A program made the translations under genes and the position numbers. Below the pieces are notes generated by a model. It saw only the letters and a program-made list of their open reading frames with translations. It was not told where the DNA came from and made no database searches. This document shows positions 14,161-45,588 of a stretch of 64,000 nt of DNA, piece after piece. The DNA lies in contig SMSO01000032.1 in assembly GCA_004764695.1 (NCBI GenBank), positions 5,922,483 to 5,986,482 of the forward strand. The letters run 5' to 3'. The DNA is from Schizochytrium sp. TIO01 (Eukaryota > Protista > Bigyra: Labyrinthulomycetes). Numbering within the stretch: position 1 is the first letter of the stretch; the number at the start of each line of letters is the position of its first letter.

Positions 14161-14371
14161 GGGGGGTAGGGTGTAATTTAGTGTAAGGTCCTGTGAAGAC
14201 TTTCTCAGATGACAAAGTACTGACAAGACTTCGGGTCTTCAGAAAAAAGGTCACTGAGAGGGGTTTTCAAACCAAAACGCCGCAGAAAATCTAGATAGTG
14301 ACCCTTGCACAAAAAAAATAGGTATCGCTTTTATCGCTTTTATCGCTTTTATCGCTTTTATTAGGGGGGTA
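14161..14371 (+). repeat. G-run-bounded ~205-bp element, copy 1 (type A)
   Basis: GGGGGGTA...ttttcaaaccaaaacgccgcagaaaatctagatagtgacccttgcac A8 taggt (atcgctttt)4 atta GGGGGGTA. Confidence 0.95.
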
Positions 14372-14455
14372 TGCAAGACGTTTGGAAATAATGGAGAACA
14401 ATTTTATTTTAATTTTTTTTTACAAATTATCAATGTATAAGGTTTAGATGCATGT

Positions 14456-15112
14456 CTACTTGGATGCATAGAGGGCTTTTTGGAGCTGTCGGTTCCACTC
14501 TTTGGCATAATCGGCGATCGTACCGGGTTCGTTGTTCGGCGGAATCAGAGAAGTGAGGTTCTTGTACAAAAAGATAGAAAGAAGCGTTTGGTACACAGTA
14601 GAAACCAGTGGGCAGAGCTTGAAATCCGGATCGAAGACCTCTGCAATGTTGAATTTATTATAGCCCTCCCCACCCCGGGTCCTTCTATTGATCAGCACAC
14701 CTGTCATGGCCTGAGCAAAGCTCGTTATGCGCTCTGTATCTCTACCTTTACCCGAGACAAAGAAGGAACCTTCGCCGAGGAAAGCTTTCCTTTCATTGGC
14801 AAGGAACTCGAAAATCATGTATGCTACAGCCGGGTAGGTGAACTTCATAGCATGGCCGGACACAGAGAGGCGACTCAGTACTCTCCGGAAGGTGTGAATT
14901 TGCCTTTTGATATGCATAGACGTGTCACCACGAGGGGTAATCGCAAATGCCTCCATAGCCTTATAGTCGGAAGCATAGAGCTTGAGCTCGCGGCACATGA
15001 CGGTCTCCATGGTATTAAGATGCAGTTGGCGAGAACGGCGCGGACGGAAGCTGTAAGAGCCCTCCCGGCTAATCTGCGCCCGTCGAACGACCTTAGAGTT
15101 CATTGCAGTCAT
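14456..15112 (-). CDS. Hypothetical protein, paralog of 16092..16739
   Basis: Shared ELKL(Y/H)ASDY, YPAVA(Y/H)MIF, KLCPLV, YAKEWNRQ..ALYASK. Confidence 0.85.
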   Translation of the reverse strand: MTAMNSKVVRRAQISREGSYSFRPRRSRQLHLNTMETVMCRELKLYASDYKAMEAFAITPRGDTSMHIKRQIHTFRRVLSRLSVSGHAMKFTYPAVAYMIFEFLANERKAFLGEGSFFVSGKGRDTERITSFAQAMTGVLINRRTRGGEGYNKFNIAEVFDPDFKLCPLVSTVYQTLLSIFLYKNLTSLIPPNNEPGTIADYAKEWNRQLQKALYASK

Positions 15113-15808
15113 CCTTACTGTTATTGATAAGCTACGCTAGGCCTCGGTGATCTTTGGTGTTTTGGTTTTGCTGGTTTGGTGTTTTGGTTTTGCATCACTA
15201 TGTTGATTATTATTTGGCAATTTGCGGCCGCATCGCTGCGCCGTGGATTCCAGTGCATAATTTCCAGTGCGAAAATTCCGGTGCAAAAATTCCAGTGCAA
15301 AAATTCCAGTGCAGGCTGCTAAGACAGGTTTCAAGTATAAGTCGCCATTATATGATTGTGATATGACTAGTATTTACGTATAGTTTATGGTAACCGTAGA
15401 TCTTTCCGGAATAGCTGAAACTTCCAGGAACCTTCTGATAAATGCCAAACGTCGGGAACAAACAGAATAGCACCGATCGGAGAGTGGGGCGAGGGTTAGG
15501 GTAGAGGCTGTGTTGAAAATGTGTTGTTCAGGAATTTCCTTGTCATACCGGGAGTCCTTATCTATATAAGCTACAGTTTGAAGCAAGGCAATGATGATGG
15601 ACTTCGTGATAGGACCGCCTTTGGAATCCAATACCTTGAAAGTATCATTAGGCGTTGAGTTCGATTCCCATTTCTTCAGATTTATTTTCCCCTCCCCTTT
15701 TTCTCTTTGAGAAACACTCGCGCGTGTCACCACCTGCTCTAAGAACCGCATATAGATAGCAATCGTCGCGGGGTGGGAGGGGGGGCATTATGATTTTCTT
15801 TGTTTTTA

Positions 15809-16016
15809 GGGGGTAGGGTGTAATTTAGTGTAAGGTCATGTGAAGACTTTCTCGGATGACAAAGTACTGACAAGACTTGGGGTCTTCAGAAAAAGGTCAC
15901 TGAGAGGGGTTTTCAAACCAAAACGCCGCAGAAAATCTAGATAGTGACCCTTGTGCAAAAAAATTAGATATCGCTTTTATCGCTTTTATCGCTTTTATCG
16001 CTTTTATTAGGGGGTA
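15809..16016 (+). repeat. G-run-bounded element, copy 2 (type A)
   Basis: Same core, (atcgctttt)4, GGGGGTA at both ends. Confidence 0.95.
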
Positions 16017-16091
16017 GATGGGACGTTTGGTAATATGAAATAGTATTAAGAGAAACAAATATTGATGTATAACGTTTAGATACCTGCATGT

Positions 16092-16739
16092 CTACTTGGA
16101 TGCATAGAGGGCTTGTTGGAACTGGCGGTTCCACTCTTTGGCGTATGCGGCGATTGTAACGGGTCGGTTGTTGGGTGGAATCAAAGAAGCGAGGTCCTTG
16201 TACAAAAGCATGGACAGAAGCGTTTGATATACAGTGGTAACCAGTGGGCAGAGCTTGGAACCCGGATGGAAGACCTCCTCGATTGTATGTGGGTTGTAGA
16301 CTGCCTTATAATCGATCGTTTTCCCAATCATATGGCACAGCATCATCTGTGCACAGCTCGTTTTGCGCTCTGTATCCTCGTCTTTACCGGAGACAAAGAT
16401 GGAGCCTTCACTGAGGAAAGTATCCCTTTCCTCGGCAAGGAGCGTGAAGATCATGTGCGCTACAGCCGGGTAGGCGATCTTGGCAGCGTAGCCGGGTAGA
16501 TGGAGGGTCCTTAGTACTCCCTGGAAGGCCTGGACTTGACTCTTGATGTGCATACACGCGCTACGGTCGAGGGTCATCGCGAATGCCTCCATCAAATCGT
16601 AGTCGGAGGCGTGCAGCTTGAGCTCGATGTACGTGACGGTCTGCGCGCTTTCCAGGTGCGAGGGGATAGAGTGGCGCGGAAACAGCCCATAATAGCCCTC
16701 CGAATCGAGGTTCGACCGTTCAAAGAGGTGCTCCTGCAT
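16092..16739 (-). CDS. Hypothetical protein, paralog of 14456..15112
   Basis: Protein and DNA similarity along most of its length. Confidence 0.85.
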   Translation of the reverse strand: MQEHLFERSNLDSEGYYGLFPRHSIPSHLESAQTVTYIELKLHASDYDLMEAFAMTLDRSACMHIKSQVQAFQGVLRTLHLPGYAAKIAYPAVAHMIFTLLAEERDTFLSEGSIFVSGKDEDTERKTSCAQMMLCHMIGKTIDYKAVYNPHTIEEVFHPGSKLCPLVTTVYQTLLSMLLYKDLASLIPPNNRPVTIAAYAKEWNRQFQQALYASK

Positions 16740-17091
16740 TGTTGATAAGTTACGGTAGGTCTTGGTTTTGCCTTACTGATGTTTTGGTTTTGCTTTGTTG
16801 GTGTTTCGGTTTTGCTTTGTTGGTGTTTTGGTTTTGCTTTGTTGGTGTTTTGGTTTTGCTTTGCTTTGTTATTCTGATTTGCCAAAAGTTTACGGCCGTA
16901 TCGCCGCGTAGGAAGGGGGGTTCTAGCGAGACCGGTAAGGTTGACACCTACTTCACTCAATAAATGCCGCAGGTAAGTGGGTGAGTTTGAAGCTTAGGTG
17001 CGTCAAGTAGCACCAAGAATTTTCTGAGAATTTCCATAACCGGTAGTAATCAAATGTCCGCGTGGTTCCTTTCAGTACCGACTTAATACTA

Positions 17092-17190
17092 AGCAAGAGT
17101 TCCAGTGCAAGAGTTCCAGTGCAAGAGTTCCAGCGCAAGAGTTCCAGTGCAAGAGTTCCAGCGCAAGAGTTCCAGCGCAAAGATTCCAGC
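17092..17190. repeat. 14-bp tandem repeat (gcaagagttccag[t/c])n; related TTCCAGTGC array at 15248-15313
   Basis: About 7 units visible. Confidence 0.9.
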
Positions 17191-17696
17191 ACGAGTCGCA
17201 TTTACATGATTGTGATATGACTAGTATTTACGTATAGTTTATGGTAACCGTTGATCTTTCCGGAATAGCTGAAACTTCCAGGAACCTTCTGATAAATGTC
17301 AAACGTCGGGAACAAACAGAATAGCACCGATCGGAGAGTGGCCAAACGTCGGGAACAAACAGAATAGCACCGATCGGAGAGTGGGGCGAGGGTTAGGGTA
17401 GAGGCTAAGTTGAAAATGGGTTGTCCAGTCAATTGTTGTGATGCTGGGTGTGTCCTTATCTATAAAAGGTACAGTGGATGGGTAGCAACAATAATCGTGT
17501 TAGAACCAGGACAGCCTTTTGTATGAAATAATTGGAAATGACTGTCAGGCATTGAGTTCGATTCTCGTCACTCCAAATTTATTTCCCCCTTCCTTTTCCT
17601 CTGTCACAGACACTCACACGCACCGCGACCTACTATAATACTTGCATATAGTAGCAGATAGCAAGCCGTCCTGATATTTTTTTGTGTTGGTTTTTA

Positions 17697-17906
17697 GGGG
17701 GGTAGATTACAATTTGGTCTTAGGTTCTGTGAAGACTTTCTCATTTGACAAAGTACTGACAAGACTTTGCGTATTCAGAAAAAGGCCGCTGAGGGGGGTT
17801 TTCAAACCAAAACGCCGCAGAAAATCTAGATAGTGACCCTTGCACAAAAAAAATAGGTATCGCTTTTATCGCTTTTATCGCTTTTATCGCTTTTATTCGG
17901 GGGGTA
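17697..17906 (+). repeat. G-run-bounded element, copy 3 (type A)
   Basis: Same core, (atcgctttt)4. Confidence 0.95.
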
Positions 17907-17969
17907 GATGGGACGTTTGGAAAATATTGGAGAAGAGAACAATTTTTTTTTAAAGAAGGAAGTCTCTAT

Positions 17970-19007
17970 CTAGTCATTTTTTTTACTGTCGTAAGTGTAA
18001 ATCATCTCATTCTGATACTCCTCATACCACACCTGAGTATAGATAGCATGATTAAGATCATTAGAGAGTGTGTGGAGAATCGTCGTAAAATGCTCATAAT
18101 CCAGAAATATGACGAGTACAAAGTACATTACACGAATCATGCTGTTTCTTGTTGAGTATAGCCGATTAACTACGTGCATGGAATCCCCAACATGTTCCCC
18201 GCCAGGCAAGATCTCCAGCCGTAAGATCCGCAGAACCATTTTTTTGAGCAGATCGACCCGCAGTTCCGGACGGCAATTTTTTAATTCATAAATAGTATTG
18301 CGGATTAGGTCCCGGTGGTGTGTCACGAGCTTCATACATAAAAAGACCACGCCGATGAGCCCAGGACCCAGTCCGTGCATTTCAACACCACCTGTGCTAT
18401 GTAAGTGTGCAAACCTACGCGCAGTCCTTCGAATGAGGAAGTAAATCTCACTTGCGCCGTCTGGCTGTTTGGACTGCAGCATACTGCAGCATTCTCTGGT
18501 GGCCAACCTCACTTTTTCGTTAACAAATTTCACAATGTCCTGCTCTGTGATATTCGCTGGACGAAGACATTTCCCCGGCCGAGGGCACTTTTCAAGAGTT
18601 ATGTCCTCACGGGGGCGCTTTTCGGAAGTACGTAGCGCAGAGACAGCCTTCTTTGCGACCTCCGCACTAACCTTGATGGACTTACTCAGGGTTCCGGGGC
18701 TTTTAAGCTTAGCCTCAATCATATTTAGGAGGATGGTTCGGAGGGCCTCGGACATGGCAGTAGAGCGAATGTGCGAGCTAGAAGGGCCGCTGGTGATACC
18801 CGTGGTAGAAGTAATGGTAGGAGTAGAAGTAGCAGTCACAGTAGTACCCGTGGTAGAAGTGGTGGTAGGGGTAGTAGCATTGGTAGCATTAGGAGTAACA
18901 GTGGCAGCACTGGTCGTAGTTGTTGTACCCGGGGTAGGAGTAGCCGTAGAAGTGGCAGTAGGCTTCAGACTCTTACTCTTAGACGTAGATTTAGGGAAAG
19001 GCGGCAT
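17970..19007 (-). CDS. Hypothetical protein with a Thr-rich N-terminus, paralog of 19943..21073
   Basis: Shared MPPFP.STSKSKSLKP, EKRPREDITLEK, HGLGPGL, LPGGEHVGDS, NHAIYTQ.WYEEYQ. Confidence 0.85.
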   Translation of the reverse strand: MPPFPKSTSKSKSLKPTATSTATPTPGTTTTTSAATVTPNATNATTPTTTSTTGTTVTATSTPTITSTTGITSGPSSSHIRSTAMSEALRTILLNMIEAKLKSPGTLSKSIKVSAEVAKKAVSALRTSEKRPREDITLEKCPRPGKCLRPANITEQDIVKFVNEKVRLATRECCSMLQSKQPDGASEIYFLIRRTARRFAHLHSTGGVEMHGLGPGLIGVVFLCMKLVTHHRDLIRNTIYELKNCRPELRVDLLKKMVLRILRLEILPGGEHVGDSMHVVNRLYSTRNSMIRVMYFVLVIFLDYEHFTTILHTLSNDLNHAIYTQVWYEEYQNEMIYTYDSKKND

Positions 19008-19471
19008 ATTGAAAGTCGGTTTCTAGCTTCTTGGGGAACAGAAGGCTGATCCGTGCTACTGCGTATCCGCTTACTTTGTTTTTATTCTTTCGCTGGTTAG
19101 CGTTTTGGTTTTGCCACCCGAAATGGTGGAACCTCTGTTTGAATTCCGGTTTTCATCAGTCACGGTCGCATTGTTACAATCATTAGATACATGTAAGCAA
19201 GAGTTCTCTCGGAGCGCATTAGGAATAACGTTGAGTGTAGTGCTAATCAGCAGGCCCTCTCGAACAAGTGCAACTTCCAGGAACAATCTGTCAAGTATCG
19301 GGGACAACTTAAATTAGACCGACACCGGGCGAGCGCTCGATTGCGTCGTCCTCTCAGTGGGAGAGTTAGGGTTAGGGTAAAGTCAGAAAACAGCGAGTGA
19401 AGTCGGGTTGCTCAGAGCGCCCTGTTTATGAAAATGGGTTGCGCACACATCTCCAAGTTTTTGTCTTGTTA

Positions 19472-19866
19472 GGGGGGGTAGGGTGTGATTTGATACAGGG
19501 TCTTGTGGAGACTTTGTCAAATGGCAAGGTGCTGTCAAGACTTTGAGTATTCAAATAAAGCTCACTGAGGGGGGTTTTCAAACCAAAACGCCGCAGAAAA
19601 ACTAGATAGTGACCCTTGCACAAAAAAAAGAGGTATCGCTTTTATCGCTTTTATCGCTTTTATCGCTTTTATTAGGGGGGTATGGTGTAATTTAGTGTAA
19701 GGTCACGAGGAGACTTTGTCAAATGACAAGGTGCTGACAAGACTTTGAGTATTCGGATAAAGGTCTTTGTGAGGGGTTTTCAAACCAAAACGCTGCAGAA
19801 AATCTAGATAGTGACCCTTGCAGAAAAAAATTAGGTATCGCTTAAATCGCTTTTATTCGGCTGGTA
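19472..19866 (+). repeat. G-run-bounded element, head-to-tail copies 4 (19472-19682) and 5 (19675-19866) sharing one GGGGGGTA junction
   Basis: Two consecutive cores; copy 5 has only 2 partly degenerate atcgctt units and a degenerate right G-run. Confidence 0.95.
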
Positions 19867-19942
19867 TTCAAGATGTTTTAAAGAAATAGCGGAGAAGAGA
19901 ACAATTTTTAAATTTTCTTTTTAAGAAGGATATCCCTAGTCA

Positions 19943-21073
19943 TTAATCACTTGCGTATAAGTAAGTTATCTCACTCTGATACTCCTCATACCACAACTGG
20001 GTATAGATAGCATGATTACGATCATTATGGAGTGTGTGGAGGATCGCCGGGAAATCTTTACATTTCAGAAATATGAGGAATGCAAAGTACATTACGCGAA
20101 CCGTGCTGTTTTTGGTTAAGTATACCCGATTAAGCGCGTTTGCGGAATCCCCAACATGTTCCCCACCAGGCAACATCTCCTGCCGTAAGAGCCGTACACC
20201 CATTTTTTTGATCAGGCCGAACCGCGCTTCCCGGCTGTAAGTTCGTACTTCATTAAGAGTACCACGGATTATATCCCAGTGACGTGTCATCATCTTCATA
20301 CATAAAAAGATCACGCCGGCGAGCCCAGGACCCAGTCCATGCGTTTTCAAAGTACCTAAACTCTGTACGTGCGCAAAGCAACTCGCAGTCCTTCGAATGA
20401 GGAAGTAAATCTCAATTGCACCGTCTGGCCGTTTAGGCTGCACGATACTGCAGTATTCTTCGGTGGCCAACCTCACTTTTTCGTCAAAAAATCTCACAAT
20501 GTCCTGCTCTGTGATATTCGCTGGACGAAGACATTTACCTGGCCGAGGGCTCTTTTCAAGGGTTATGTCCTCACGGGGGCGCTTTTCGTTAGTACGCGGC
20601 ACCAAGGTAGTCTTCTTTGCGACCTCCGCACTAATCTTGACGGGCTTACTCGGGGTTGCGGTAGTTCTAAGCTTAGCCTCAATCAGATTTAGGATGACAG
20701 TTCGGAGGGCCTCAGACATGGCAGTAGAGCGAATGGGTGGGCTAGAAGGGCCACTGGAGAGAGTCCTGGGAATCGCGATACTCGTAGTATGCATAGGAGT
20801 AGAAGTAGCAGTCACAGTAGCAGCACTGGTAATGGCGGTACCCGTGGTACAAGGAATGATAGGAGTAGAAGTAGCAGTCACAGTAGCAGCACTGGTAACG
20901 GTGGTGCCCGTGGCCCCAGTGGTAGAAGCAATGGCAGGGGTAGTAGCACTAGGAGCATTAGTAGTAACAGTAACATCACTGGTAGTAGTTATACCCGTGG
21001 TAGGAGTAGCCGTAGAAGTAGCAGAAGGCTTCAGGCTCTTACTCTTAGACGTAGATTCAGGGAAAGGCGGCAT
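19943..21073 (-). CDS. Hypothetical protein with a Thr-rich N-terminus, paralog of 17970..19007
   Basis: Similarity throughout; upstream DNA is also duplicated (19008-19470 vs 21074-21534). Confidence 0.85.
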   Translation of the reverse strand: MPPFPESTSKSKSLKPSATSTATPTTGITTTSDVTVTTNAPSATTPAIASTTGATGTTVTSAATVTATSTPIIPCTTGTAITSAATVTATSTPMHTTSIAIPRTLSSGPSSPPIRSTAMSEALRTVILNLIEAKLRTTATPSKPVKISAEVAKKTTLVPRTNEKRPREDITLEKSPRPGKCLRPANITEQDIVRFFDEKVRLATEEYCSIVQPKRPDGAIEIYFLIRRTASCFAHVQSLGTLKTHGLGPGLAGVIFLCMKMMTRHWDIIRGTLNEVRTYSREARFGLIKKMGVRLLRQEMLPGGEHVGDSANALNRVYLTKNSTVRVMYFAFLIFLKCKDFPAILHTLHNDRNHAIYTQLWYEEYQSEITYLYASD

Positions 21074-21534
21074 ATTGAAAGTCGGTTTCTAGCTTCTTGG
21101 GTAAAAGAAGGCTGACCCGTGCTACTGCGTATGCGCTTACTTTGTTTTTATTCTTTCGCTCGCTGGTTAGCGTTTTGGTTTTGCCACCCGAATGGTGGAA
21201 CCTCTGTTTGAATTCCGGTTTTCATCAGTCACGGTCGCATTGTTACAATCATTAGATACATGTAAGCAAGAGTTCTCTCGGAGCGCATTAGGAATAACGT
21301 TGAGTGTAGTGCTAATCACCAGACCCTCTCGAACAAGTGCAACTTCCAGGAACAATCTATCACGTATCGGGGACAACTGAAGTAAGACCGATCCCAGATG
21401 AGCACTCGATTGCGTCGTCCTCTCAGTGGTAGGGTTAGGGTAAAGTATGAAAGTAACGAGTGAAGTCGGGTTGCCCATAGCGTCTTGTTTATGAAAGTGG
21501 GTTGCGCACACATCTCCGAGTTTTGGTTTTGTTC

Positions 21535-21743
21535 GGGGGGTATCTTACAATTTAGTCTTAGGTTCTGTGAAGACTTTGTCAAATGACAAAGTGCTGACAA
21601 AACTTTGACTATTCAGGAAAGGTTGCTGAGCGGGGTTTTCAAACCAAAACGCCGCAAAAAGTCTAGATAGTGACCCTTGCACAAAAAAATTAGGTATCGC
21701 TTTTATCGCTTTTATCGCTTTTATCGCTTTTATTCGGGGGGTA
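21535..21743 (+). repeat. G-run-bounded element, copy 6 (type A)
   Basis: Same core, including the palindrome actttgtc-aaat-gacaaagt and (atcgctttt)4. Confidence 0.95.
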
Positions 21744-21812
21744 GATGGGACGTTAGAAACAAATTTTAGTAAACAGACAAAATAAAAAGGAATAAGATTC
21801 TTCTTCTTCTTC

Positions 21813-21940: not shown

Positions 21941-22951
21941 TCAGAATGCTAGACTCTTGATCATAATCGGCTCTATCGGTGTGAAACCTGGTTTGATAAA
22001 GTGCATCTCTGACATAAAAGAAACTGGCATGGGCCCTTTGTTTTCCAACTCAATGAGTGCATCGGTAATATGCGCACACTCCCCACGATTCCCAGCATCA
22101 TCAGACTCTGGCTTGAGAAGACGGAAACAAGCAGAGCGGAAAGCATCAATAATTTCTCCAGCAAGGATGAACGAGGGCGCGGAAGTAAAGTTGTCCAGCA
22201 GACTTGTGTGGAGATGGGCAAGGTAGATCTCCAAGCTGCGTGAAAAATACCGCGTGAAGCCGGTTGCAACCAGGGCATGATAAGCCCGGATATTAATCTT
22301 AGATTTTGGGTGTGTGAGTCTGTGAAGACTGGCTGCAAGCTTTTCGAAGTATTGGCATCTTTTAGTGGTATCTGGGAAAACACCTCCTGTGCTACGGGAT
22401 ATAACATACTCTACCCGTACCTCTTCAAGGGCAGTATACACACCTGCGCCGTGTGTGACCAGATCGAAGTATGTGGGAGCTCGATTCCACAGTGAAAGCC
22501 TGTAAGCCCTCGCGTACTTTTTCCGGGGGGTCATCAAAACGTCCCCGCTCACGTACTCGTTCATGAAGATGAAAGCAAATTCCGAAATGCTCATCAAATG
22601 AATTGAGATAAGCTTTGGGTCAAAGCACGTGTTCAGAAACCGTGCGAGGCTGGGCATACCCTGAACGGACTTATCGCCTTCACACATGAAATTCACCAGT
22701 CCTTCTGCAAATGAGAGAGACCGGGGCTGGGGCTGGGGCTGGGGCTGGGGCTCGCTAAGCTTTCTCTTCTTGTCACTTGATACCATTTCCAAGGGTGGGA
22801 GCTCAGGGATTTCTCCGAAAGCGTCGCAGTCGAAAATTGCATCAAAATCTACAGTATCACACGAATCGAGGTGTTGAAACTTGCGCTTTACGGGGCTGGA
22901 GCCATCGTGTCCGTACTCGTAGGTTGGCGCGGTGAGAGAAATAATGGCCAT
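21941..22951 (-). CDS. Hypothetical protein with NLS-like motifs and a (QP)n tract
   Basis: 336 aa; PVKRKF, KKRKLSE; ACCATGG-like start context (gccatgg on + strand); AAAACCAAAAC upstream. Confidence 0.8.
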   Translation of the reverse strand: MAIISLTAPTYEYGHDGSSPVKRKFQHLDSCDTVDFDAIFDCDAFGEIPELPPLEMVSSDKKRKLSEPQPQPQPQPRSLSFAEGLVNFMCEGDKSVQGMPSLARFLNTCFDPKLISIHLMSISEFAFIFMNEYVSGDVLMTPRKKYARAYRLSLWNRAPTYFDLVTHGAGVYTALEEVRVEYVISRSTGGVFPDTTKRCQYFEKLAASLHRLTHPKSKINIRAYHALVATGFTRYFSRSLEIYLAHLHTSLLDNFTSAPSFILAGEIIDAFRSACFRLLKPESDDAGNRGECAHITDALIELENKGPMPVSFMSEMHFIKPGFTPIEPIMIKSLAF

Positions 22952-23129
22952 GGTGGATGGGTTGTTTGCAAAGCTGGTTTCTGCTCCTGTTTACTTGTTC
23001 GACTCGCTTGTCTTACTTTTTTTTGCTGGTTTGGTGTTTTGGTTTTGCTGACTTGATTTGGTGTTTTGGTTTTGATGATTTGGTTTGGTGTTTTAGTTTT
23101 TCACCCATACCACTTGTTCGCGAGGTTAG

Positions 23130-23455
23130 GGTTTCCAGCAAGGTTGCTAGGGCAGGTTGCTAGGGCAAGGTTTCCAGAACATGCTGCAGAGGCAAGGTTG
23201 CTAGGGCAAGGTTTCCAGCACAGACTGCCAAGGCAAGGTTTCCAGTGCAAGTTGCTAAGGCAAGGTTTCCAGCACAGACTGCTAGGGTAAGGTTGCTAGT
23301 GCAGGCTGCTAAGGCAAGGTTTCCAGCACAGACTGCTAAGACAGGTTTCCAGTGCAAGTTGCTAAGGCAAGGTTTCCAGCACAGACTGCTAAGACAGGTT
23401 TCCAGTGCAGGTTGCTAAGGCAAGGTTTCCAGCACAAACTGCTAAGGCAAGGTTG
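23130..23455. repeat. Degenerate ~27-bp tandem array (gttgcta[a/g]ggcaaggtttccagcacagact) between divergent genes
   Basis: About 10 interleaved units. Confidence 0.9.
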
Positions 23456-23969
23456 GATTTCCTTCCAATCTTTCCAAGAATTTCCAAGAGTTTCCAGGAA
23501 CAGGCTTCCGGTCCAAAATTGTTCAAGGAATTTTCGAGTGCGATTGGCGTTCGAATATTCGTCATTCGTCCACAACTATGTCTGCTAGGATAAGACTAAG
23601 GCTTCAGGAAGGTTTCCAGAATATTCTACCTACTCTCCAAACACAGTCACACGTGCACGCGGTGAGAGCGTCCGGCGAAACTTTCGCATAGCCCCGTATC
23701 ATAAGATCTACCAATAATGGATGGATGGCGTGAAGCAACGCTATCATCTATGATTTCTATGAATGGAATCACCATTGATACCTTACCTGATTAATTGACA
23801 GTAGTAGGAGGATACCTCGAACAGTGCGTGCGGTCATCCAAGGCAACCAAACCAAGTCAACAAAACCAAAACTCCAAACCAGCAAAACATCCAACCCAGC
23901 AAAAAGTAAGACAAGCAAACCAGCAAGCAGCCTTTTACGACCACTACCTACCTACCTTTCACCGAGAAA

Positions 23970-24524
23970 ATGAGCATTGGTGCATGCATTGACGACCTCT
24001 ATGAATACGTTGATAATCACAAGACGCAAACGCTGCTTAATTATCGCAAAAGCCTCGATGCTATCGATCGCGAGGATTGCTACAAGCCCTTTACCCGTAC
24101 ACTTATCATTCGCGTCGTGTACCTGATCCTGGGACTTGATGTCCCAGACCTCATTGCGTGTGTTCCCGACAACATGGAACTTGTGGATCAACTGAGGTCC
24201 GAGTGGGAGGAGGCTCTTACAAAGGAGTACTGCAAGAATCTCAGAAATAAAAAGCAGGATCTTATTGAAGAGTTCGATGTGGAGTGCATGGAGTCCGTTA
24301 TCGCAACTTTCGGTCTTTATAAGTCTAGGAATATTCAGCAGGAGGCTTTTGACATCCCAGAGGACTACTGCCCCGGTTGTGACGAGGTGGAGTATGGATG
24401 TTGCTGCGACAGGTGTGACGTGTGTAATGCGATTAACCCGGAGGGCAGCCGTCACCAGTACTGTGAAAAGGACTGCAAGGACTATATCTTGTATTCAGAA
24501 GACAAGCTTGTCTACCATGATTAA
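23970..24524 (+). CDS. Hypothetical protein with a C-terminal Cys/His (putative Zn-binding) cluster; family with 25337 and 26713
   Basis: KPFTR, NMEL..Q..SEWE; CPGC..CCCDRCDVC..INPEGSRH..C...C. Confidence 0.8.
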   Translation: MSIGACIDDLYEYVDNHKTQTLLNYRKSLDAIDREDCYKPFTRTLIIRVVYLILGLDVPDLIACVPDNMELVDQLRSEWEEALTKEYCKNLRNKKQDLIEEFDVECMESVIATFGLYKSRNIQQEAFDIPEDYCPGCDEVEYGCCCDRCDVCNAINPEGSRHQYCEKDCKDYILYSEDKLVYHD

Positions 24525-25210: not shown

Positions 25211-25258
25211 AAAACCAAAACCAAAACCAAAACCAAAACCAAAACCAAAACCAAAACC
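25211..25258 (+). promoter_or_regulatory. (AAAACC)8 array, an amplified putative promoter motif; also at 26575-26616
   Basis: ~80-100 bp upstream of ATG in sense orientation; single-copy AAAACCAAAAC precedes many other genes. Confidence 0.6.
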
Positions 25259-29265: not shown

Positions 29266-29456
29266 TGCCCGAGTGATAAGGTTTTACCAGCATTCACTTG
29301 CGCCGAGCCTAAAGTGCGTAACTTAGGGACCCCCACATTAGTCTTCTGGAAACATGCATATTAAAACTTGTAGTATTCTGATAATCACAAATTACCCTGG
29401 GTACCTACCCTCGGGTGCCGCCATTTTGAGGATTCCTTGATAGGAGGTAATATGGC

Positions 29457-29663
29457 GGGGGTAGAATAAACATGCGATTTTAGGTTCGGGGAAACTAAAA
29501 ATTCAAATTCTCAACCCAAAACTCCGACTCCCCCATAGTAAAGTGACTTTTCTCCGCAGAAAATCTAGATAGTGACCCTTGCACAAAAAAAATAGGTATC
29601 GCTTTTATCGCTTTTATCGCTTTTATCGCTTTTATCGCTTTTATCGCTTTTATTCGGGGGGTA
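29457..29663 (+). repeat. G-run-bounded element, copy 7 (type B: different left half, same core), (atcgctttt)6
   Basis: GGGGGTAgaataaacatgcg...ttttctc|cgcagaaaatctagatagtgacccttgcac...; lies within an inverted repeat ~29360-29705 / ~36968-37277. Confidence 0.95.
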
Positions 29664-29834: not shown

Positions 29835-30158
29835 TTATTTAATAGTAGTAGTATTATGCATAGTTCTGGTAGTAGTGGATTTGAGTAGACTCTCACAGTG
29901 TTCGATATCATTAGTGGTACTAGCAGTGATAAAGGCCATATCAGTGCGCAACATGCTCAGGTCGCGTGACCGGAAGCTTGTATCTGGTTTCTTCTGTCTG
30001 TTATGATTCTCTTGAAAGATGAACCTGAAGATGCTATCAAGCTCGTCATCAAAGCTGTGTTCTGACTTAGCCTGCTCTGTGCTAGTCATCTTGATCAAGA
30101 GCTCTTGATATGATATTTCTTGGTCAATTGGTTTAGGTTTGCGTTTTGGTTTTACCAC
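29835..30158 (-). CDS. Small hypothetical protein
   Basis: 107-aa ORF; start uncertain. Confidence 0.45.
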   Translation of the reverse strand: MVKPKRKPKPIDQEISYQELLIKMTSTEQAKSEHSFDDELDSIFRFIFQENHNRQKKPDTSFRSRDLSMLRTDMAFITASTTNDIEHCESLLKSTTTRTMHNTTTIK

Positions 30159-30384
30159 ATTGACTCAGCGGAGGAAAAAGGGAAAAAGGTAATAAAAAAA
30201 TAAATACAACTAAGGAATCGAAAACCCGATCTCTAACAATTACTACAGTTATATAATGAAAACACACCACTGTAATAACCATTCATCAATGTTCCCCGTG
30301 TTCCCCATATATTTGACACCTAAGCTAACCATATTCCCTCTTACACAATTCAAGTTTTTAATCAAACTAATAATAAATTAATTA

Positions 30385-30423
<39 letters not shown>

Positions 30424-30846
30424 TAGAGAGAAAGAGAAAGAGAAAGAGAGAGAGAGAGAGAGGAGGAGTTGCTGGGGCTTGTTGCTATGAACCCTTGACC
30501 CGGGGGTTGCTATCAATTGCACATAAGACTATATGCTGCCTACCTTCTTCCAGAACTTCATTCAATATAATACTTAACAAATAAATAAAATAAAATAAAA
30601 TAAAATAAATAATAATAATAATAATAATAATAATATGAGAGAAAGAGAGAGAGAGAGAGAAGAGTAGTTGCTAGGGCTTGTTGCTCAGGCTTGTTGCTCA
30701 GGCTTGTTGCCCAGGCTTGTTGCTATGAACCCTTGACCCGGGGGTTGCTATCAATTGCACATAAGACTATATGCTGCCTACCTTCTTCCAGAACTTCATT
30801 CAATATAATACTTAACAAATAAATAAAATAAAATAAAATAAAATAA

Positions 30847-30886
<40 letters not shown>

Positions 30887-30925
30887 TGAGAGAAAGAGAG
30901 AGAGAAGAGTAGTTGCTAGGGCCTG
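30385..30925 (+). repeat. ~238-bp tandem unit (2 copies plus a stub) of (AAT)n-(GA)n microsatellites and the core gttgctatgaacccttgacccgggggttgctatcaattgcacataag
   Basis: Cores at 30481-30527 and 30719-30765; inverted copies at 34880-35365. Confidence 0.9.
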
Positions 30926-30989
30926 TTACGTGGGATCGTTGCTACCCTCTTCCATAACCTCATTCAATAAATTCAATAACAATAGATAG

Positions 30990-31961
30990 TTACTTATTAT
31001 GATTGATAGCATCACCACTAACAAAAGGCTGAAAACTCCGACAGAGCTCCTTCCAACTAGCGCTTCCAGGAGTCGGGCATTCGTGGCATAAGGCCGAGCC
31101 ATACTCAACACGTGTACGGAAATTAAACATTGACCGAGGGAACCATTCAAGTGGATCCTTGAAAGTGCAATCATCCAGAATCCAGGAACTCACCGACAGG
31201 GAACGAATGGCAGCCTGTCGCAAGGAACATTGCAAGGCACCCGCATAAAGCGTCAGCTCATCGGCAAAGGATGCTTGATGGCCATACAACCTTAGGCGTC
31301 CCACAAAGCGTTTACCCCACTCATGTTCTAGAATACCATCTATCAAGTTGCTCAAATGAACCTTTAAAAGATACTCATACCGACGAATAACATCATCAGC
31401 AGTAGTACGCTGAGTGAAGCGTAGGGATAGTTCCAGCTCAACATCACCCAGAGAGTTGCCATACTCTGCACCCGCCGTGCGTCGAGTCACGCGACGGCTA
31501 GGGCGGACGGCCCACTGCAGAGAACGCCTCAAAGCATCGATAGAAAAAACCTTATCCACAAACATAGCGTGAGCACCAGCAGGAAGCCGATCCCCAAAAT
31601 CAGTTCCGGAGTCATCTCCTTCCCCTTCCTCGCCCACCAACTCAGGAACCAATCCGAACGCTGAAGACAAATTCGGTCTTAACACACACTCACGGAAACC
31701 ATCAAACAACGACTTGTCCCAAATCGATAGGTGTTTCTCCATCACTAGTTTGAACTCAGTAAAGGCAACACTAATTGCATCATGATATGATAGTATTTCA
31801 GAAAGCGATTCTAAACCAATATACCTGATGATGTAAAGCAAATTCCCGATATCAGTATGACTGAATCCGCTACGCTGATCGAGATTAGACCCAAGAACAT
31901 TCTGGAAACTATGAATGAAAAACAACAGTTGCTGCTCAACCTTAGCGTCTACCACCATCAC
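30990..31961 (-). CDS. Hypothetical protein (G/T-biased coding strand)
   Basis: 323-aa ORF; C-terminal LCHEC. Confidence 0.75.
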   Translation of the reverse strand: MMVVDAKVEQQLLFFIHSFQNVLGSNLDQRSGFSHTDIGNLLYIIRYIGLESLSEILSYHDAISVAFTEFKLVMEKHLSIWDKSLFDGFRECVLRPNLSSAFGLVPELVGEEGEGDDSGTDFGDRLPAGAHAMFVDKVFSIDALRRSLQWAVRPSRRVTRRTAGAEYGNSLGDVELELSLRFTQRTTADDVIRRYEYLLKVHLSNLIDGILEHEWGKRFVGRLRLYGHQASFADELTLYAGALQCSLRQAAIRSLSVSSWILDDCTFKDPLEWFPRSMFNFRTRVEYGSALCHECPTPGSASWKELCRSFQPFVSGDAINHNK

Positions 31962-32092
31962 GACTCACCACAAGCATCCATAAAACAGCTCTACCCCAAT
32001 TAGGGTTTTGCTTCAAGATTCTTCCTTTTATTTCTTTCTGTAATATTATAATTTTATTTATTTAGTTTTTAATTGATACTGCTACCATTTAT

Positions 32093-32575
32093 TCAGTATG
32101 GAACGCGCAAACGATCGTCAACATAGGCCGTAAACAGGCTATCTTCCAACAGCATTTCCGGACGAATACCAGCATAGTGGCACTGCATAACCGTCCACAC
32201 AGACAAATCATGCAAGTACTTCTGCCCAACCAGCATAAGATTGTTCCAGGAACAAGCCGCGATGCGCCGCAGCTGACCGTCCTTAAGATAACCAATCGAT
32301 AACGGCACGGCAGCAGTCGAAATACCACGAGCAACACGCCCCTGGCACTCATCAAGAACACTGGCTGTGAATCCAGCAGGTACCAACATTGCACCCTTTA
32401 ATTCAGGACCCATCAGCCGACGGAAAGCACGAGTAAGCTCAGCATAGTAACCTTCTACCTTCTCCTATAGCAACGATCTATGCTCTGCAGTATGATTAAC
32501 ACGACTATCACCCAATCGAACCTTCTTCATTCGATCACTCACATCATCATTGCTACACTCGCGTTCACGCTTCAT
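32093..32575 (-). pseudogene. Hypothetical gene interrupted by an in-frame TAG at 32465-32467
   Basis: ATG at 32575 (MKRERECS...RMKKVRL...RSLL*EKVEGYYAELTRAFRRLMGPELK) is in frame with the 32093..32413 ORF. Confidence 0.55.
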
Positions 32576-32741
32576 GATCACACTTACAAGATAATTACTT
32601 TGGATAAATCACCGCTCAGGAGTTTTGGGTTTGTTGAACACCAGCAAACCCGAAACTAGACCCACCACCACGATCAAACACTAGCTCAAGACAAACACTA
32701 CAACTACAACTACAACCCACTACCCCCATTACATCACCACC

Positions 32742-33497
32742 ATGCAATATTACCAACCCAACGACGAAAACTCTCCCTTCGGGAAATGCAAGCAAACACC
32801 CGAGGAAGAAGCCCTCAACAACCACCTACAACATGCATCCTTCCTTCAACTCGCACGCTACTTCGGAGGTTTCCACAATTGCTCCGTAAAAAGAGCCATA
32901 GACTTCCTACTCACAGCAGCATCCGACTCTCTACTCAGATTCCTACGCTGCCTACACGCAACCAACTTCACCATTAGACTTCAATACATCCGTCAGCAGT
33001 TCCCCAGACGCGACTTTGACAACTTCTGCGCAGACTTCAACACCCACCATTTCATAAACGCAATCAAAAACACCATTAAGTCTACACATGAAAAAGTCAT
33101 CAGCGAACAAGCACGCAACCGTACTCCACTCTCTCTAGCAGCCAGACTTCCACAAATGCCCAAGAAAATGCTCAGAAAGTTCCATAGAGACTCCTTCCAC
33201 CGTTGCTTCTTCAGACTACTCTACCAGACAATCTACTTCGGATTAAGAACATCGGACACCCACCTTAATGCTCTTGTCACCTTACTCGATCCTTCCTCGC
33301 CCCACTACAAGTTTGCAACACTCATGCAAACCCAAATCGCAACCGACTCCAAGGACCCGCAAAATATCAAACCCCGCTGCATTTACCAACAACTAGCACA
33401 GACCGTAACCCAAACTGTACTTGCCGATCCTACAAAGCTCTATGTCTCTACATATCAACTCGCCTCTTTTCAACCAGAGACACAAATCAAACCTTAA
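32742..33497 (+). CDS. Hypothetical protein (strongly A/C-biased coding strand)
   Basis: 251 aa; CACCATG start context; AAACCCGAAAC upstream. Confidence 0.7.
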   Translation: MQYYQPNDENSPFGKCKQTPEEEALNNHLQHASFLQLARYFGGFHNCSVKRAIDFLLTAASDSLLRFLRCLHATNFTIRLQYIRQQFPRRDFDNFCADFNTHHFINAIKNTIKSTHEKVISEQARNRTPLSLAARLPQMPKKMLRKFHRDSFHRCFFRLLYQTIYFGLRTSDTHLNALVTLLDPSSPHYKFATLMQTQIATDSKDPQNIKPRCIYQQLAQTVTQTVLADPTKLYVSTYQLASFQPETQIKP

Positions 33498-34106
33498 AAT
33501 TAACATACCACCTACCCACCACTCCCTTGAAGTCATCAACAACATCATCATACCCAACACGCCTACTCACCACCCACAACACAAAGCACAACACCCTATC
33601 ATAACAACACCTCCACCAATTCATCATTCACCAACACTCACAATAACACCCCTTACACCAGGAGATGACATTCCTTTCTCATGGAACATACCCCTATCAC
33701 CACCTCCATAACCCCTATCAATATATTCTATTCTATCTTCTGATAATAATAATAAAATATTATTATTATTATTATTTTTTATTTTTTTTGTTTGAGAGAA
33801 GAGAAGAGAAGAGAAGAGAAGAGGAGAGGGAGGCTTTGAGTAGAAAAGTTGCCTCTTTGCCTAAACTTTATAAAAATCGATTTTTACTTATGCTTCGACC
33901 GGTCCAATTCCGCCATCGCGATCTCGAACGCTGGGAGACCAGGGAGACTCCCAGTTGTATTTATAGTTAGTTATGACGTTTTTATTTAAAAATTTTACAC
34001 TAGGAGTCTATATAGGGAAAACCCTAGGAGTATTTTTTTAAAATTCGCGTTTTAATTTTCGGATCCAAATTTCGCTTTTGATAGCGAAAAGCAACTAGTA
34101 ATTAGA

Positions 34107-34312
34107 TAGTCAAAACCATAGTAGTAATCAGATGGCTTATTCTGTGGTGAACATTTATTATAAGATATCTAGTCAAAACTATAGTAATCATCAGGTGTTT
34201 TATTCTAGGGTGAACAATGACTATAGGATATCTAGTCCAAACTATAGTAATCATCAGGTGTCTTATTCTAGGGTGAACAATGACTATAGGATACCTAGTC
34301 AAAACTATAGTA
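34107..34312. repeat. 63-bp tandem repeat (~3.3 copies)
   Basis: tagtc(a/c)aaac at 34107, 34170, 34233, 34296. Confidence 0.9.
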
Positions 34313-34451
34313 GTTGTTGAGTAGTTTAATCTGTTATTCGAAAGCGAAAATACTAATCACGTGATACGGAGAACCCTAATAGTGCTATGATAGTTTATTT
34401 TGTTCAAATTTACCCGTTTAACGGTGGTTAGTTGAATAAATTATTAAACAA

Positions 34452-34890
34452 ACTTGCTCAGAAGACTTGTTCAGAAGACTTGCTCAGAAGACTTGCTCAG
34501 AATACTTGCACCCTAATAGTCCCTAGGCGCCTTACTCAGAAGACTTGCTCAGAAGACTTGCACCCTAATAGTCCCTGGGCGCCTTACTCAGAAGACTTGC
34601 TCAGAAGACTTGCACCCTAATAGTCCTTGAGTGCCTTGCTCAGGAAACTTGCTCAGAAAACTTGCACCCTAATAGTCTCTGGGCGCCTTGCTCAGGAAAC
34701 TTGCTCAGAAACTTGCCTCCCCCTAAATTACTTGATCACAATCATATTCAGACGAGCAACATGCCCACCCACCATGCCCACTCAACAAGTCCACGCAACA
34801 AGCCCACACAACAAGCCCACACAACAAGCCCACGCAACAAGCCCACGCAACACGCTCACCTAACATGCCCACGCAACATATCCTAGCAAC
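34452..34890. repeat. Composite short-repeat arrays: (acttgctcagaag)n with caccctaatagtc units (34452-34716), then (gcaacaagcccac)n (34755-34890)
   Basis: Directly visible. Confidence 0.9.
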
Positions 34891-35090
34891 TACTCCTCTC
34901 TCTCTCTTCTCTTCTCTTCTCTTCTCTATTATTATTATTATTATTATTATTATTTATTTTTTTGTTAAGTATTTATAGAAGAAGGTAGAAAGAGACAGCC
35001 TTATATGCAATTGATAGCAACCCCCGGGTCAAGGGTTCATAGCAACACGCCCTAGCAACTCCTCCCTCTCTCTCTTCTCTTCTCTCTTAA

Positions 35091-35121
<31 letters not shown>

Positions 35122-35365
35122 TTATTTATTTGTTAAGTAGTAAGAAGGTAGAAAACATATAACCTTATGTGCAATTGATAGCAACCCCCGGGTCAAGGGT
35201 TCATAGCAACACACCCTAGCAACTCCTCCCTCTCTCTCTCTCTCTTCTCTTCTCTTCTTTCTTAATATTATTATTATTATTATTATTTTATTTTTTTGTT
35301 AAGTATTTATAGAAGAAGGTAGAAGGAGACAGACTTATATGCAATTGATAGCAACACCCGGGTCA
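34880..35365 (-). repeat. Three inverted copies of the 30385-30925 unit
   Basis: cttat(a/g)tgcaattgatagcaacccccgggtcaagggttcatagcaac at 35000 and 35164, partial at 35334, each after (TC)n-(ATT)n. Confidence 0.9.
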
Positions 35366-35449
35366 GAGGTCGGTCTAGTATGGGAACATAGGGAATCTGA
35401 ATGAGTTCTTCGTGTAGTATCTTATACAGTTAGGTGCTAACGTCGTGTC

Positions 35450-35649
35450 TACCCCCCTAATAAAAGCGATAAAAGCGATAAAAGCGATACCTATTTTTTT
35501 TGTGCAAGGGTCACTATCTAGATTTTTTGCGGCGTTTTGGTTTGAAAACCCCGCTCAGCAACCTTTCCTGAATAGTCAAAGTCTTGTCAGCACTTTGTCA
35601 TTTGACAAAGTCTTCACAGAACCTAAGACTAAATTGTAATCTACCCCCC
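35450..35649 (-). repeat. G-run-bounded element, copy 8 (type A, reversed), (aaaagcgat)3
   Basis: TACCCCCC at both ends; palindrome actttgtca-tt-tgacaaagt. Confidence 0.95.
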
Positions 35650-35676
35650 TAAAAGCGCCTCTTCTATGGAGAAAAG

Positions 35677-36300
35677 TCACGTTAAGATGGAGGCCTTTGA
35701 GTTTCGGTTTATGAATTTGAATTCTTGTGATTTCCAAATAAAATAAAGTTGAAGAACCATCGTTTGAATATCAGCAACTCCCTTCATCCATTCATATGGA
35801 ATGTCATCATGATAAGCACTCATGATATTACATTCACTTGAACACGGCTCGGTGCGAAACTTAATCAATTTGTTTTTCAACGCTGGATCATTTATGTTTT
35901 TTTCTACCTCTATTACCGAGGCTACACAATGATCTATCTTATGCAAGATAGATCGTAAGATATAATGCTTTGATATGTAGTGACGGGGCATAATTGTATG
36001 AAACATGGGATCCACGATAAAACTTCTAAAGATTATCAAATCCTCACGCGAATAGGGTCCCAATGTTAAAATGATTGCAACAATTGAAAGGACGAAAGAC
36101 CTTATAAATGAGAAAGGGTGGAATCCTTCTAAACAAATAATGAGTATGCTATTAATGATTGCTCCACCTACGACTATGTTTGTAGCTCGAATGGTAGAAG
36201 CACGTTGTGCCAATTCTTGCTTTCTAAAAGCACGAGGGTCAAAATCTGGAGAGAAAAATACGCTACAATGCACTGGTATCCCATCATACATTGCTGCCAT
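35677..36300 (-). CDS. Hypothetical protein with two hydrophobic (possible TM) segments
   Basis: IVVGGAIINSILIICL; FIRSFVLSIVAIILTLG. Confidence 0.65.
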   Translation of the reverse strand: MAAMYDGIPVHCSVFFSPDFDPRAFRKQELAQRASTIRATNIVVGGAIINSILIICLEGFHPFSFIRSFVLSIVAIILTLGPYSREDLIIFRSFIVDPMFHTIMPRHYISKHYILRSILHKIDHCVASVIEVEKNINDPALKNKLIKFRTEPCSSECNIMSAYHDDIPYEWMKGVADIQTMVLQLYFIWKSQEFKFINRNSKASILT

Positions 36301-36423
36301 GTTTGCTTATGCTCTTAATTTCGGGTTTGCCTGGACTGCGTTGACTCATCAAGTATGTTCGATAAAAGCCAGCAAGCGCACACACTTTTCTACAAATCAA
36401 GTATCTTCGAGAAGAGTTCTCGC

Positions 36424-36830
36424 GTTCAACGAATGTTCCCAGAAAACGATTGATTGCGAGAAGAGTCCTCAGGTTCAACGAATGTTCCCAGAAAACGATT
36501 GATTGCGAGAAGAGTCCTCAGGTTCAACGAATGTTCCCAGAAAACGATTGATTGCGAGAAGAGTCCTCAGGTTCAACGAATGTTCCCAGAAAACGATTGA
36601 TTGCGAGAAGAGTCCTCAGGTTCAACGAATGTTCCCAGAAAACGATTGATTGTGAGAAGAGTCTTAAGGTTCAGTTGAGGAACGAATCTTCCGAAGAGCC
36701 GTAAGGTTCGGTTGAGGAACATTCGTTCTGAAGAGTTCTAAGGTTCAACAAATGTTCCGAAGAGCCGTAAGGTTCAGTTGAGGAACGAATCTTCCGAAGA
36801 GTCCTAAGGTTCAACGACTGTTCCTGGAAC
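36424..36830. repeat. 49-bp tandem repeat (5 copies, then diverged units)
   Basis: gttcaacgaatgttcccagaaaacgattgattgcgagaagagtcctcag. Confidence 0.95.
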
Positions 36831-36990
36831 ACGAATAGCATTCGCTAAAGTATGCTTAGAATACTCTCGGGCATGATTGATTGCGAAACGTTTTTGCGAC
36901 GTATGTTCGAGGACAATATTCTGACATCGGGAAAATAATATAGTATCTCGGATAAATTATCCTCTACCTCGGGTAAACAAACTTCCCCGA

Positions 36991-37180
36991 TACCCCCCTA
37001 ATAAAAGCGATAAAAGCGATAAAAGCGATAAAAGCGATACCTATTTTTTTTGTGCAAGGGTCACTATCTAGATTTTCTGCAGAGAAAAGTCACTTTAATA
37101 TGGGGGAGTCAGAGTTTTGGGTTGAGAATTTGAATTTTTAGTTTCCCCGAACCTAAAATCGCATGTTTATTCTACCCCCC
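36991..37180 (-). repeat. G-run-bounded element, copy 9 (type B, reversed), (aaaagcgat)4
   Basis: Near reverse complement of copy 7. Confidence 0.95.
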
Positions 37181-37378
37181 TCATATTATCGCATAATTAA
37201 CTTTTGGGCAAGTGGGTCAACCCCTGGGTAGGTACCCAGGTCTCTTTGTGATTATCAAATTACTACAAGTTTAATATTAGTAAAAAAAACGCAGAGCAAA
37301 ACCAAAACTCGGACACAGCAAAACCAAAACTTGAACCCAGCAATCCCAAAACTTCAACTCAGTAAATCCTTAAAGACT

Positions 37379-41182: not shown

Positions 41183-41206
41183 CGAACAAAGTGTTTTTAA
41201 GATATG

Positions 41207-41752: not shown

Positions 41753-41802
41753 TCTCGTGTTAACACTTTAAAAAAGTATTGTATAATTTATATATATTCT
41801 CA

Positions 41803-44666: not shown

Positions 44667-44694
44667 ATTTTTAGAAATGTTTAAAACTCTACCC

Positions 44695-44904
44695 TACCCC
44701 CCTAATAAAAGCGATAAAAGCGATAAAAGCGATAAAAGCGATACCTATTTTTTTTGCACAAGGGTCACTATCTAGATTTTCTGCGGCGTTTTGGTTTGAA
44801 AACCCCCCTCAGTGACCTTTTTATGAATACTCAAAGTCTTGTCAGCACTTTGTCAAATGACAAAGTCTTCACAGTACCTTACATTAAATTGTAATATACC
44901 CCCC
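44695..44904 (-). repeat. G-run-bounded element, copy 10 (type A, reversed)
   Basis: Starts ~30 bp after the RING gene stop. Confidence 0.95.
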
Positions 44905-44919
44905 TCTCAGCCAGCCTAG

Positions 44920-45330
44920 CAACTTCACTCACTCAACTTGTTTCTGGAAACTTCTTGAGCTAATAAGTTGACTTCACTCACTCGACTTGTTTCTGGAAAC
45001 TTCTTGAGCTAATAAGTTGACTTCACTCACTCGACTTGTTTCTGGAAACTTCTTGAGCTAATAAGTTGACTTCACTCACTCGACTTGTTTCTGGAAACTT
45101 CTTGAGCTAATAACTTGACTTCACTCACTCGACTTGTTTCTGGAAACTTCTTGATTCAATAAGTTGACTTCACCCACTCGACTTGTTTCTGGAAACTTCT
45201 TGAGTTAATAACTTCACTTCACTCACTCTGGAAACTTCTTGATTCAATAATTTGACTTCACCCACCCGACTTGCTGCTGTAAACTTCTTGGTTCAACGAA
45301 TTGACTTCACTCACCCGACATGTTGCTGGA
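44920..45330. repeat. 49-bp tandem array, most units with TTCtgGAAacTTC plus TCACTCACTC; continues at 45605-45790
   Basis: ttgacttcactcactcgacttgtttctggaaacttcttgagctaataag; about 8 + 4 units. Confidence 0.95.
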
Positions 45331-45378
45331 AGTCATTGTCATTGATAAATAATTTAAGAGATGTTTTAAACTCTACCC

Positions 45379-45588
45379 TACCCCCCTAATAAAAGCGATA
45401 AAAGCGATAAAAGCGATAAAAGCGATACCTAATTTTTTTGTGCAAGGGTCACTATCTAGATTTTTTGCGGCGTTTTGGTTTGAAAACCCCCCTCAGTGAC
45501 CTTTTTATGAATACTCAAAGTCTTGTCAGCACTTTGTCAAATGACAAAGTCTTCACAGTACCTTACATTAAATTGTAATATACCCCCC
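45379..45588 (-). repeat. G-run-bounded element, copy 11 (type A, reversed)
   Basis: Near-identical to copy 10; preceded by a duplicate of the RING gene tail (gaagtcattgtcattgataaataa). Confidence 0.95.

Follow-up and report, generated by a model that had tools for sequence, protein, structure and literature searches.

A family of DNA elements about 200 bp long lies in a 64,000-nucleotide stretch of contig SMSO01000032.1 from Schizochytrium sp. TIO01 (assembly GCA_004764695.1, positions 5,922,483 to 5,986,482 of the forward strand), hereafter the window. It is a real, apparently undescribed, family of cis-elements of a mirusvirus, and its unit ends look like the crossover sites of a DNA-splicing enzyme and, judged from sequence, likely act as such. 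Eleven copies (seven on the plus and four on the minus strand) and a twelfth, internally deleted remnant are spread over 31 kb. The reading that we prefer, tentatively and short of calling it probable, is that the units are att-like attachment modules for a tyrosine recombinase, which would drive a gene accordion. All copy and motif counts refer to the 64-kb window alone.

The whole window is evidently a strain variant of AurliV-2, a thraustochytrid (Aurantiochytrium) mirusvirus of the Soporavirales. The ITPase of the window is identical to AurliV-2 ORF (open reading frame) 470, the dynamin is near identical and the gene order is that of the published AurliV-2 map from about 238 to 285 kb (PMC12606086, supplement file 4). 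The element family sits in a giant, herpes-related virus whose host is a marine protist. Such viruses stay in the nucleus as episomes or integrants (PMC12606086), and Soporavirales code for terminase, portal and HK97 capsid (10.64898/2026.07.28.741200); the mechanism by which the episomes are maintained is called unclear in the same 2026 preprint. The searchable mirusvirus literature turned up no cis-acting DNA element of these viruses and no description of the present one, which may be mentioned in unexamined subscription papers, figures and bioRxiv supplements.

An exact search for the 16-bp core of the element gives 11 occurrences, at the places and on the strands listed in a first-pass annotation of the sequence, and no further core is found in the window at up to three mismatches. 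The copies are 190–211 bp long and consist of a left site, a TGACAA palindrome, a AACCAAAAC motif, the core, an A-run, an array of the nonamer ATCGCTTTT and a right site; they have no terminal inverted repeats (TIRs) and no ORF. All 42 nonamers of the window fall inside elements (4, 4, 4, 4, 2, 4, 6, 3, 4, 4 and 4 in copies 1–11) and 20 of its 24 GGGGGTA sequences are element ends. The units are 57–62% AT, compared with 56% for the window. Nine copies (type A) are 80–98% mutually identical up to the nonamer array. The other two (type B, copies 7 and 9) are 97% identical to each other and 57–65% identical to type A; both lack the palindrome and carry a variant form of the AACCAAAAC motif, which is found once in each of the nine type A copies.

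On the plus strand are copy 1 (14161–14371), copy 2 (15808–16016), copy 3 (17697–17906), copy 4 (19473–19682), copy 5 (19675–19866), copy 6 (21535–21743) and copy 7 (29456–29663); the last pairs with copy 9 in inverted orientation, and the flanks of the two are homologous. The ends of copy 2 are G5 in the window, whereas the right end reads G6 in 4/4 public sequencing runs compared. As first described, copies 4 and 5 share one G-run, the right core of copy 4, and the right core of copy 5 is degenerate. The minus strand has copy 8 (35450–35649), copy 9 (36991–37180, orthologue inside AurliV-2 ‘ORF 128’), copy 10 (44695–44904, 29 bp past the stop codon of a RING gene) and copy 11 (45379–45588), a 684-bp tandem duplicate of copy 10 with its breakpoints outside the element. 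The deleted type B remnant (35650–35745, minus strand) is in tandem with copy 8, with which it has a G-run in common, and overlaps the 3′ end of the ORF at 35677–36300; its alignment score is 72, compared with a best of 38 among 1000 shuffles. Patterns built on the element had no match in IMG/VR or in JGI metagenomes, nonamer arrays had three matches in IMG/VR, none with other parts of the unit, and searches for related loci returned one unrelated-looking ITPase locus or nothing.

The ends of the copies had been described as a direct G-run repeat. The G-run is indeed present, but the conserved site is larger and consists of G6 followed by a 13-bp arm, TA-N6-RNKTT, so that the conserved end runs 11 bp past GGGGGGTA as N6-RNKTT. 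At the left end the arm lies inside the element and at the right end outside it. It is present in 10/10 distinct right flanks (some of common ancestry) and at 0/23 GGGGTA sites that are not part of an element, the background being 2.5%. Part of the window is contained in 20 public runs from 10 studies, 9/20 of which contain half or more of it. Loose contig ends in these other runs provide further right flanks that are absent from the window, and by eye most of these carry the arm exactly or with one mismatch; six motifs taken from such loose ends had no match in the published ORF tables, which hold the first ~400 letters per cell. At right ends an imperfect mirror of the arm is made up by the last nonamer and ATTA, which gives a 13+6+13 arrangement: when the 13 bp that precede the right core are reverse-complemented, they agree with the arm at 5/7 of its conserved positions. 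Taking two inverted arms of 11–13 bp around a spacer of 6–8 bp as the mark of a tyrosine-recombinase site, the right-end geometry may be that of such a site; left sites have a single conserved arm. At two orthologous sites, copy 9 (AurliV-2, compared by eye) and the right end of copy 2 (runs X13 and X15), five of the six N6 bases are different, a replacement that could be explained by conversion from another copy.

Traces of past exchange coincide with these sites. Of eight self-matches of at least 400 bp in the window, three have a boundary no more than 6 bp from a core in both copies, and a fourth has one within 17 bp. The block copy 3–gene–copy 4 is repeated as copy 5–gene–copy 6 with one core in common; because unequal crossover of whole copies would leave a single copy between the genes, this arrangement implies exchange at the 8-bp site. 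Besides the head-to-tail copies 4 and 5 with their single G-run, shared-core junctions are found between the remnant and copy 8 and in runs X15 and X19. The copies are mosaic, with 78/190 pairs of informative sites incompatible with a tree, and copies 6 and 8 are 97% identical despite lying on opposite strands between unrelated flanks. Together these observations are good evidence that the unit ends are recombination foci. The first-pass annotation proposed a cis site bound by protein and crossover at the G-run; the ends of the duplications, the tandem junctions and the end geometry support this, but no empty site was seen in the runs compared.

The att-like reading would work as follows. Each end would be a crossover site made of the G6 core and the 13-bp arm; the recombinase would bind the arms and, as accessory repeats, the nonamers, and would exchange strands at G6. 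Crossover between sites on the same strand would excise or re-insert either the module or a gene between two modules, and gene conversion would keep the copies alike. The outcome would be a 31-kb gene accordion, in which the virus duplicates and shuffles the genes between modules. The enzyme is probably no longer encoded in the window. Its activity would be ancestral or supplied in trans, because two genes next to the elements appear to stop before the H-x-x-R and Tyr residues; a source in trans might be a Flp/Ndc10-like protein of co-resident AurliV-1.

The two genes are a 218-residue ORF between copies 1 and 2 (14456–15112, minus strand; AurliV-2 ORF 924), the predicted product of which is a truncated tyrosine-recombinase-like protein, and its 215-residue paralogue between copies 2 and 3 (16092–16739, minus strand; AurliV-2 ORF 923), which is 56% identical. 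For the 218-residue protein all four families named by the ESM Atlas are tyrosine-recombinase families (DUF3504, NDC10_II, DUF3435 and Phage_integrase, scores 0.85–0.89). By eye, both proteins have a CP(L) motif and end ~50 residues later, without the H-x-x-R or Tyr region. This is weak evidence that the pair may be tyrosine recombinases cut off before the catalytic end. AurliV-1 ORF 726 (792 residues, 220546–222924) is well expressed, was detected in the nuclear-enriched proteome and was left without a final annotation by the authors, whose table lists Foldseek matches to NDC10_II (2e-5) and Flp (0.017) (PMC12606086). By eye, its first ~400 residues contain a similar CPL...IAD..KE stretch, and the same terms find no Flp/NDC10_II-type counterpart in the accessible AurliV-2 table. 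Evidence for an enzyme that serves the element sites is weak. The next two intervals hold a 345-residue ORF without family (17970–19007, minus strand, between copies 3 and 4) and its 376-residue paralogue (19943–21073, minus strand, between copies 5 and 6).

A more elaborate, integron-like form of the att-like reading joins three claims, a viral gene-cassette array, a trans-acting recombinase and truncated local binders, and as a joint claim is doubtful. Single genes between modules would leave as circles, yielding head-to-tail dimers such as copies 4 and 5, and would be re-inserted by a Flp/Crypton-type recombinase from a second, co-resident mirusvirus, while the truncated local paralogues, binding to these sites too, would serve as regulators or would tether the episome as Ndc10 does.

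Two known systems come close to attachment modules of this kind. Like Cryptons, the units lack TIRs, have at both ends a short direct repeat, G6(TA), regarded as the substrate of recombination, and are predicted to form a circle (PMC3212892, PMC13465315), and the neighbouring genes have the Atlas matches to Crypton-derived families given above, which at 0.85–0.89 are a lead only. In contrast to Cryptons, the unit has no ORF and hence no R-H-R-Y tetrad inside, the adjacent proteins appear to be without a catalytic C-terminus, and the copies form a cluster in a virus, are fixed from strain to strain and have a nonamer array and a promoter motif. In phaeovirus attP a CC core stands between an inverted repeat on one side and direct repeats on the other (PMC13236599), and the units are similarly built. 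However, phaeoviruses have one site per genome, integrate into the host and encode a complete recombinase (PMC13236599), whereas at least 11 internal copies are seen here, in a virus of another realm.

Several observations weigh against attachment modules. At the sites themselves, TC replaces the inner TA of the core at 4/11 right sites and the left flanks have no mirror arm. The copy 10/11 duplication and another at 24911/26276 break away from cores, and a 346-residue gene not listed for AurliV-2 at its position has no element beside it. Ordinary homologous recombination of 200-bp repeats explains both the duplication around copies 1–3 and the mosaicism. For the proteins, Atlas scores below 0.9 are a lead only and the recognition value, 2032, is below the mark of 2300. 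No recombinase relative was found among Pfam, PHROGs, NCBIfam and PDB sequences, nor in a hidden Markov model (HMM) search of 1.84 billion proteins, the three matches of which are one orthologue and two repetitive or unrelated proteins. The AlphaFold model is unusable (predicted local distance difference test, pLDDT, 34), and a fold search with it gave helical matches only, with a best Z of 6.1. The window has no catalytically complete recombinase, the protein link has no HMM or fold support, and the accessible AurliV-2 tables (PMC12606086) show no recombinase annotation except IS607-like TnpA/TnpB.

The comparison between strains adds to these objections. It used eight public runs, all of them assembled contigs that break in repeats. 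Across 13000–21780 (copies 1–6) a joint that skips an element is absent from 8/8 runs; as the contigs break in repeats, the missing empty-site joints are weak but real evidence. The gene spacing of AurliV-2 likewise suggests that copies 1–6 were kept there. The family is conserved in related genomes, as the first-pass annotation had proposed to check, while the empty-site allele sought with it was not seen in these runs. Three backward-going joints were considered as circles and rejected, being read as hybrid copies or flanks. Run X11 has zero cover at 19153–19445 and no contig that joins across, and three presumed RNA runs, one flagged as probably DNA, cover the window in part. The unit is not unusually conserved between strains. 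By eye, copy 9 and its AurliV-2 counterpart have 14 differences in about 143 positions, core included; an element piece of X19 has 25/186 differences from its best match in the window stretch compared, and three gene pieces of X19 have 28/609, 20/431 and 32/402. Within the window, the earlier statement that the element is more conserved than the genes beside it holds for copies 1 and 2 (94% against 75% for their genes) but not for copies 3 and 5 (82% against 81%), nor does it hold between strains.

The main rival, which is compatible with att-like modules, gives the units the role of origin of replication, enhancer or episome tether, comparable to baculovirus homologous regions (hrs) or gammaherpesvirus oriP/terminal repeats; we regard this as a serious if rather unlikely possibility. 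The nonamers would bind an initiator or tether and the A-run would melt, the truncated recombinase-like proteins would be Ndc10-type DNA binders, and dimers and mosaicism would come from nicking and repair. The iteron-like array, the A-run, the palindrome and the AACCAAAAC motif of type A suit such a role, as do the fixed presence across strains, the episomal or integrated life of these viruses in the nucleus and the domestication of Crypton recombinases as Ndc10 without catalytic residues (PMC3212892). A nearby protein (10881–12290), the layout of which may resemble that of LANA, would fit as well. With baculovirus hrs the units share an intergenic position, a nuclear double-stranded DNA virus, an imperfect palindrome and greater likeness within a genome than across strains (PMC13513840). 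However, hrs are scattered round the genome as tandem units that are rich in AT and centred on a 30-bp palindrome (PMC13513840), whereas the present units are single and not AT-rich, are confined within the window to 31 kb and have identical polar ends, and in two copies the palindrome is missing. An origin or tether also leaves unexplained the presence of one and the same site at both ends and the conservation of the arm beyond the right end.

Orientation bears on the same alternative. The copies had been called a polarised family, and a single strand switch among seven plus and four minus copies has P = 0.006; when linked duplicates are collapsed to three plus and three minus, P = 0.1 and the polarity is only weakly supported. 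The cumulative GC skew peaks at 23456, and it is around this point that all nine type A copies change orientation, a pattern in favour of an origin that copy 7 breaks. An origin or terminus between copies 7 and 8, as the polarity might suggest, was rejected because the skew turns at 23456. At this maximum, a divergent intergenic region (22950–23970) with 13-, 14- and 27-bp repeats is itself a candidate origin or terminus.

An improbable alternative is that the units are terminase cleavage/packaging signals cut at the G-run direct repeat, in the manner of the herpesvirus ‘a’ sequence. Tandem herpesvirus a sequences are direct-repeat-bounded units that share one repeat. The realm is related, the Soporavirales have the packaging proteins named above, and the a sequence likewise has an internal repeat array. 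The pac2 heptamer is matched at 6/7 positions in 8/11 copies and the left end of copy 1 is pac1-like. However, by the definitions in PMC13595911, pac1 (T-rich between G-runs) is found in 1/11 copies and exact CGCGGCG in 0/11, so that a packaging signal of herpes type largely lacks its motifs here. The copies are moreover many, internal and in both orientations, about 25–60 kb away from the ORF that is listed last for the AurliV-2 integrant, and the distance from A-run to right core shifts with nonamer number.

It is less probable still that the units are selfish, non-autonomous derivatives of IS607, which a serine transposase would mobilize by way of a circle, the crossover taking place at GG. 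IS607 elements have GG at both ends, no TIRs or target-site duplications and short direct repeats, including four 9-bp motifs in IS1535 (PMC6188088, PMC10711439), and AurliV-2 carries IS607-like tnpA/tnpB at 48–50 kb. Their targets share only (G)GG (PMC6188088), whereas the sites of the element share the 13-bp arm besides; in IS1535 the motifs are in phase with the helix and begin 20 bp inside the end, whereas the nonamers are contiguous and 4 bp from the core. The structured right-end RNA was not found, and no insertion polymorphism was found in the runs compared.

Small RNA genes, transcription terminators or polyadenylation signals are hardly to be expected here. An internal promoter motif, four TTTT runs, the position of several copies 29–200 bp past a stop codon and a minus-strand AATAAA beside the core would fit, but the unit has no Rfam match, and on neither strand does it fold better than shuffled sequence (z +2.3 and +1.45). 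Copy 9, moreover, is flanked by divergent genes, and copy 8 is opposite to its neighbouring gene. A high-copy host miniature inverted-repeat transposable element was rejected on the anatomy of the copies in the window (no TIRs, a fixed end motif), the host genome not being open to search.

The family bears on how mirusvirus episomes replicate, persist, integrate and gain genes, and, in a host–virus system that can be cultured, supplies a well-delimited 200-bp substrate together with specific candidate proteins. A recombination module would explain how genes were duplicated locally and could be a route to a new site-specific recombinase of eukaryotes; an origin or tether could seed an episomal vector for the industrially used thraustochytrids.

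Outside the elements, the AACCAAAAC motif recurs throughout the window 44–136 bp upstream of many ATGs, often repeated (for example at 12360–12427, 16789–16855, 25213–25249 and 63789–63855), and is likely a promoter or initiator motif of the virus. Upstream of copies 2 and 3, decayed tRNA-like stretches (15580–15690 and 17470–17580, plus strand) have a T-loop-like GTTCGATT after a TATA-like box, and high-depth AT-rich contigs match 15655–15691. ARAGORN makes no call in these stretches at normal settings and Rfam gives no match; relaxed ARAGORN makes 182 calls, which are noise.

In a 469-residue protein (10881–12290, minus strand) the N-terminus is basic (TRSRAR) and an E/Q repeat extends over a long stretch, a layout that may resemble that of gammaherpesvirus LANA; the clusters matched by its C-terminal part in the Atlas are unnamed or DUF6532, none of them LANA-like, and the AlphaFold model (pLDDT 45) is unusable and lends the link no support. 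The region 29360–37280 is a nested inverted arrangement that contains copies 7 and 9 with their flanks and, at 30380–30930 and 34870–35370, repeats of ~160–200 bp that bear microsatellites. AurliV-2 differs from the window in gene content, having ORF 314 where the window has a 251-residue ORF (32742–33497). The orthologue of AurliV-2 ORF 919 (32093–32578, minus strand) has an in-frame stop and an altered start in the window, and the 346-residue ORF (47140–48180, plus strand) is absent from the AurliV-2 listing at that position. A small protein at 379–969 (minus strand) has, by eye, an NPPF methyltransferase-like motif, and a kinase at 50768–52603 (minus strand) has a weak restriction-nuclease-like HSDR_N match. 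Minisatellites of 49, 52 and 89 bp are present at 1715, 34427, 36338 and 44905, and a long (CACT)n microsatellite at 52930–53600 is found in AurliV-2 too.

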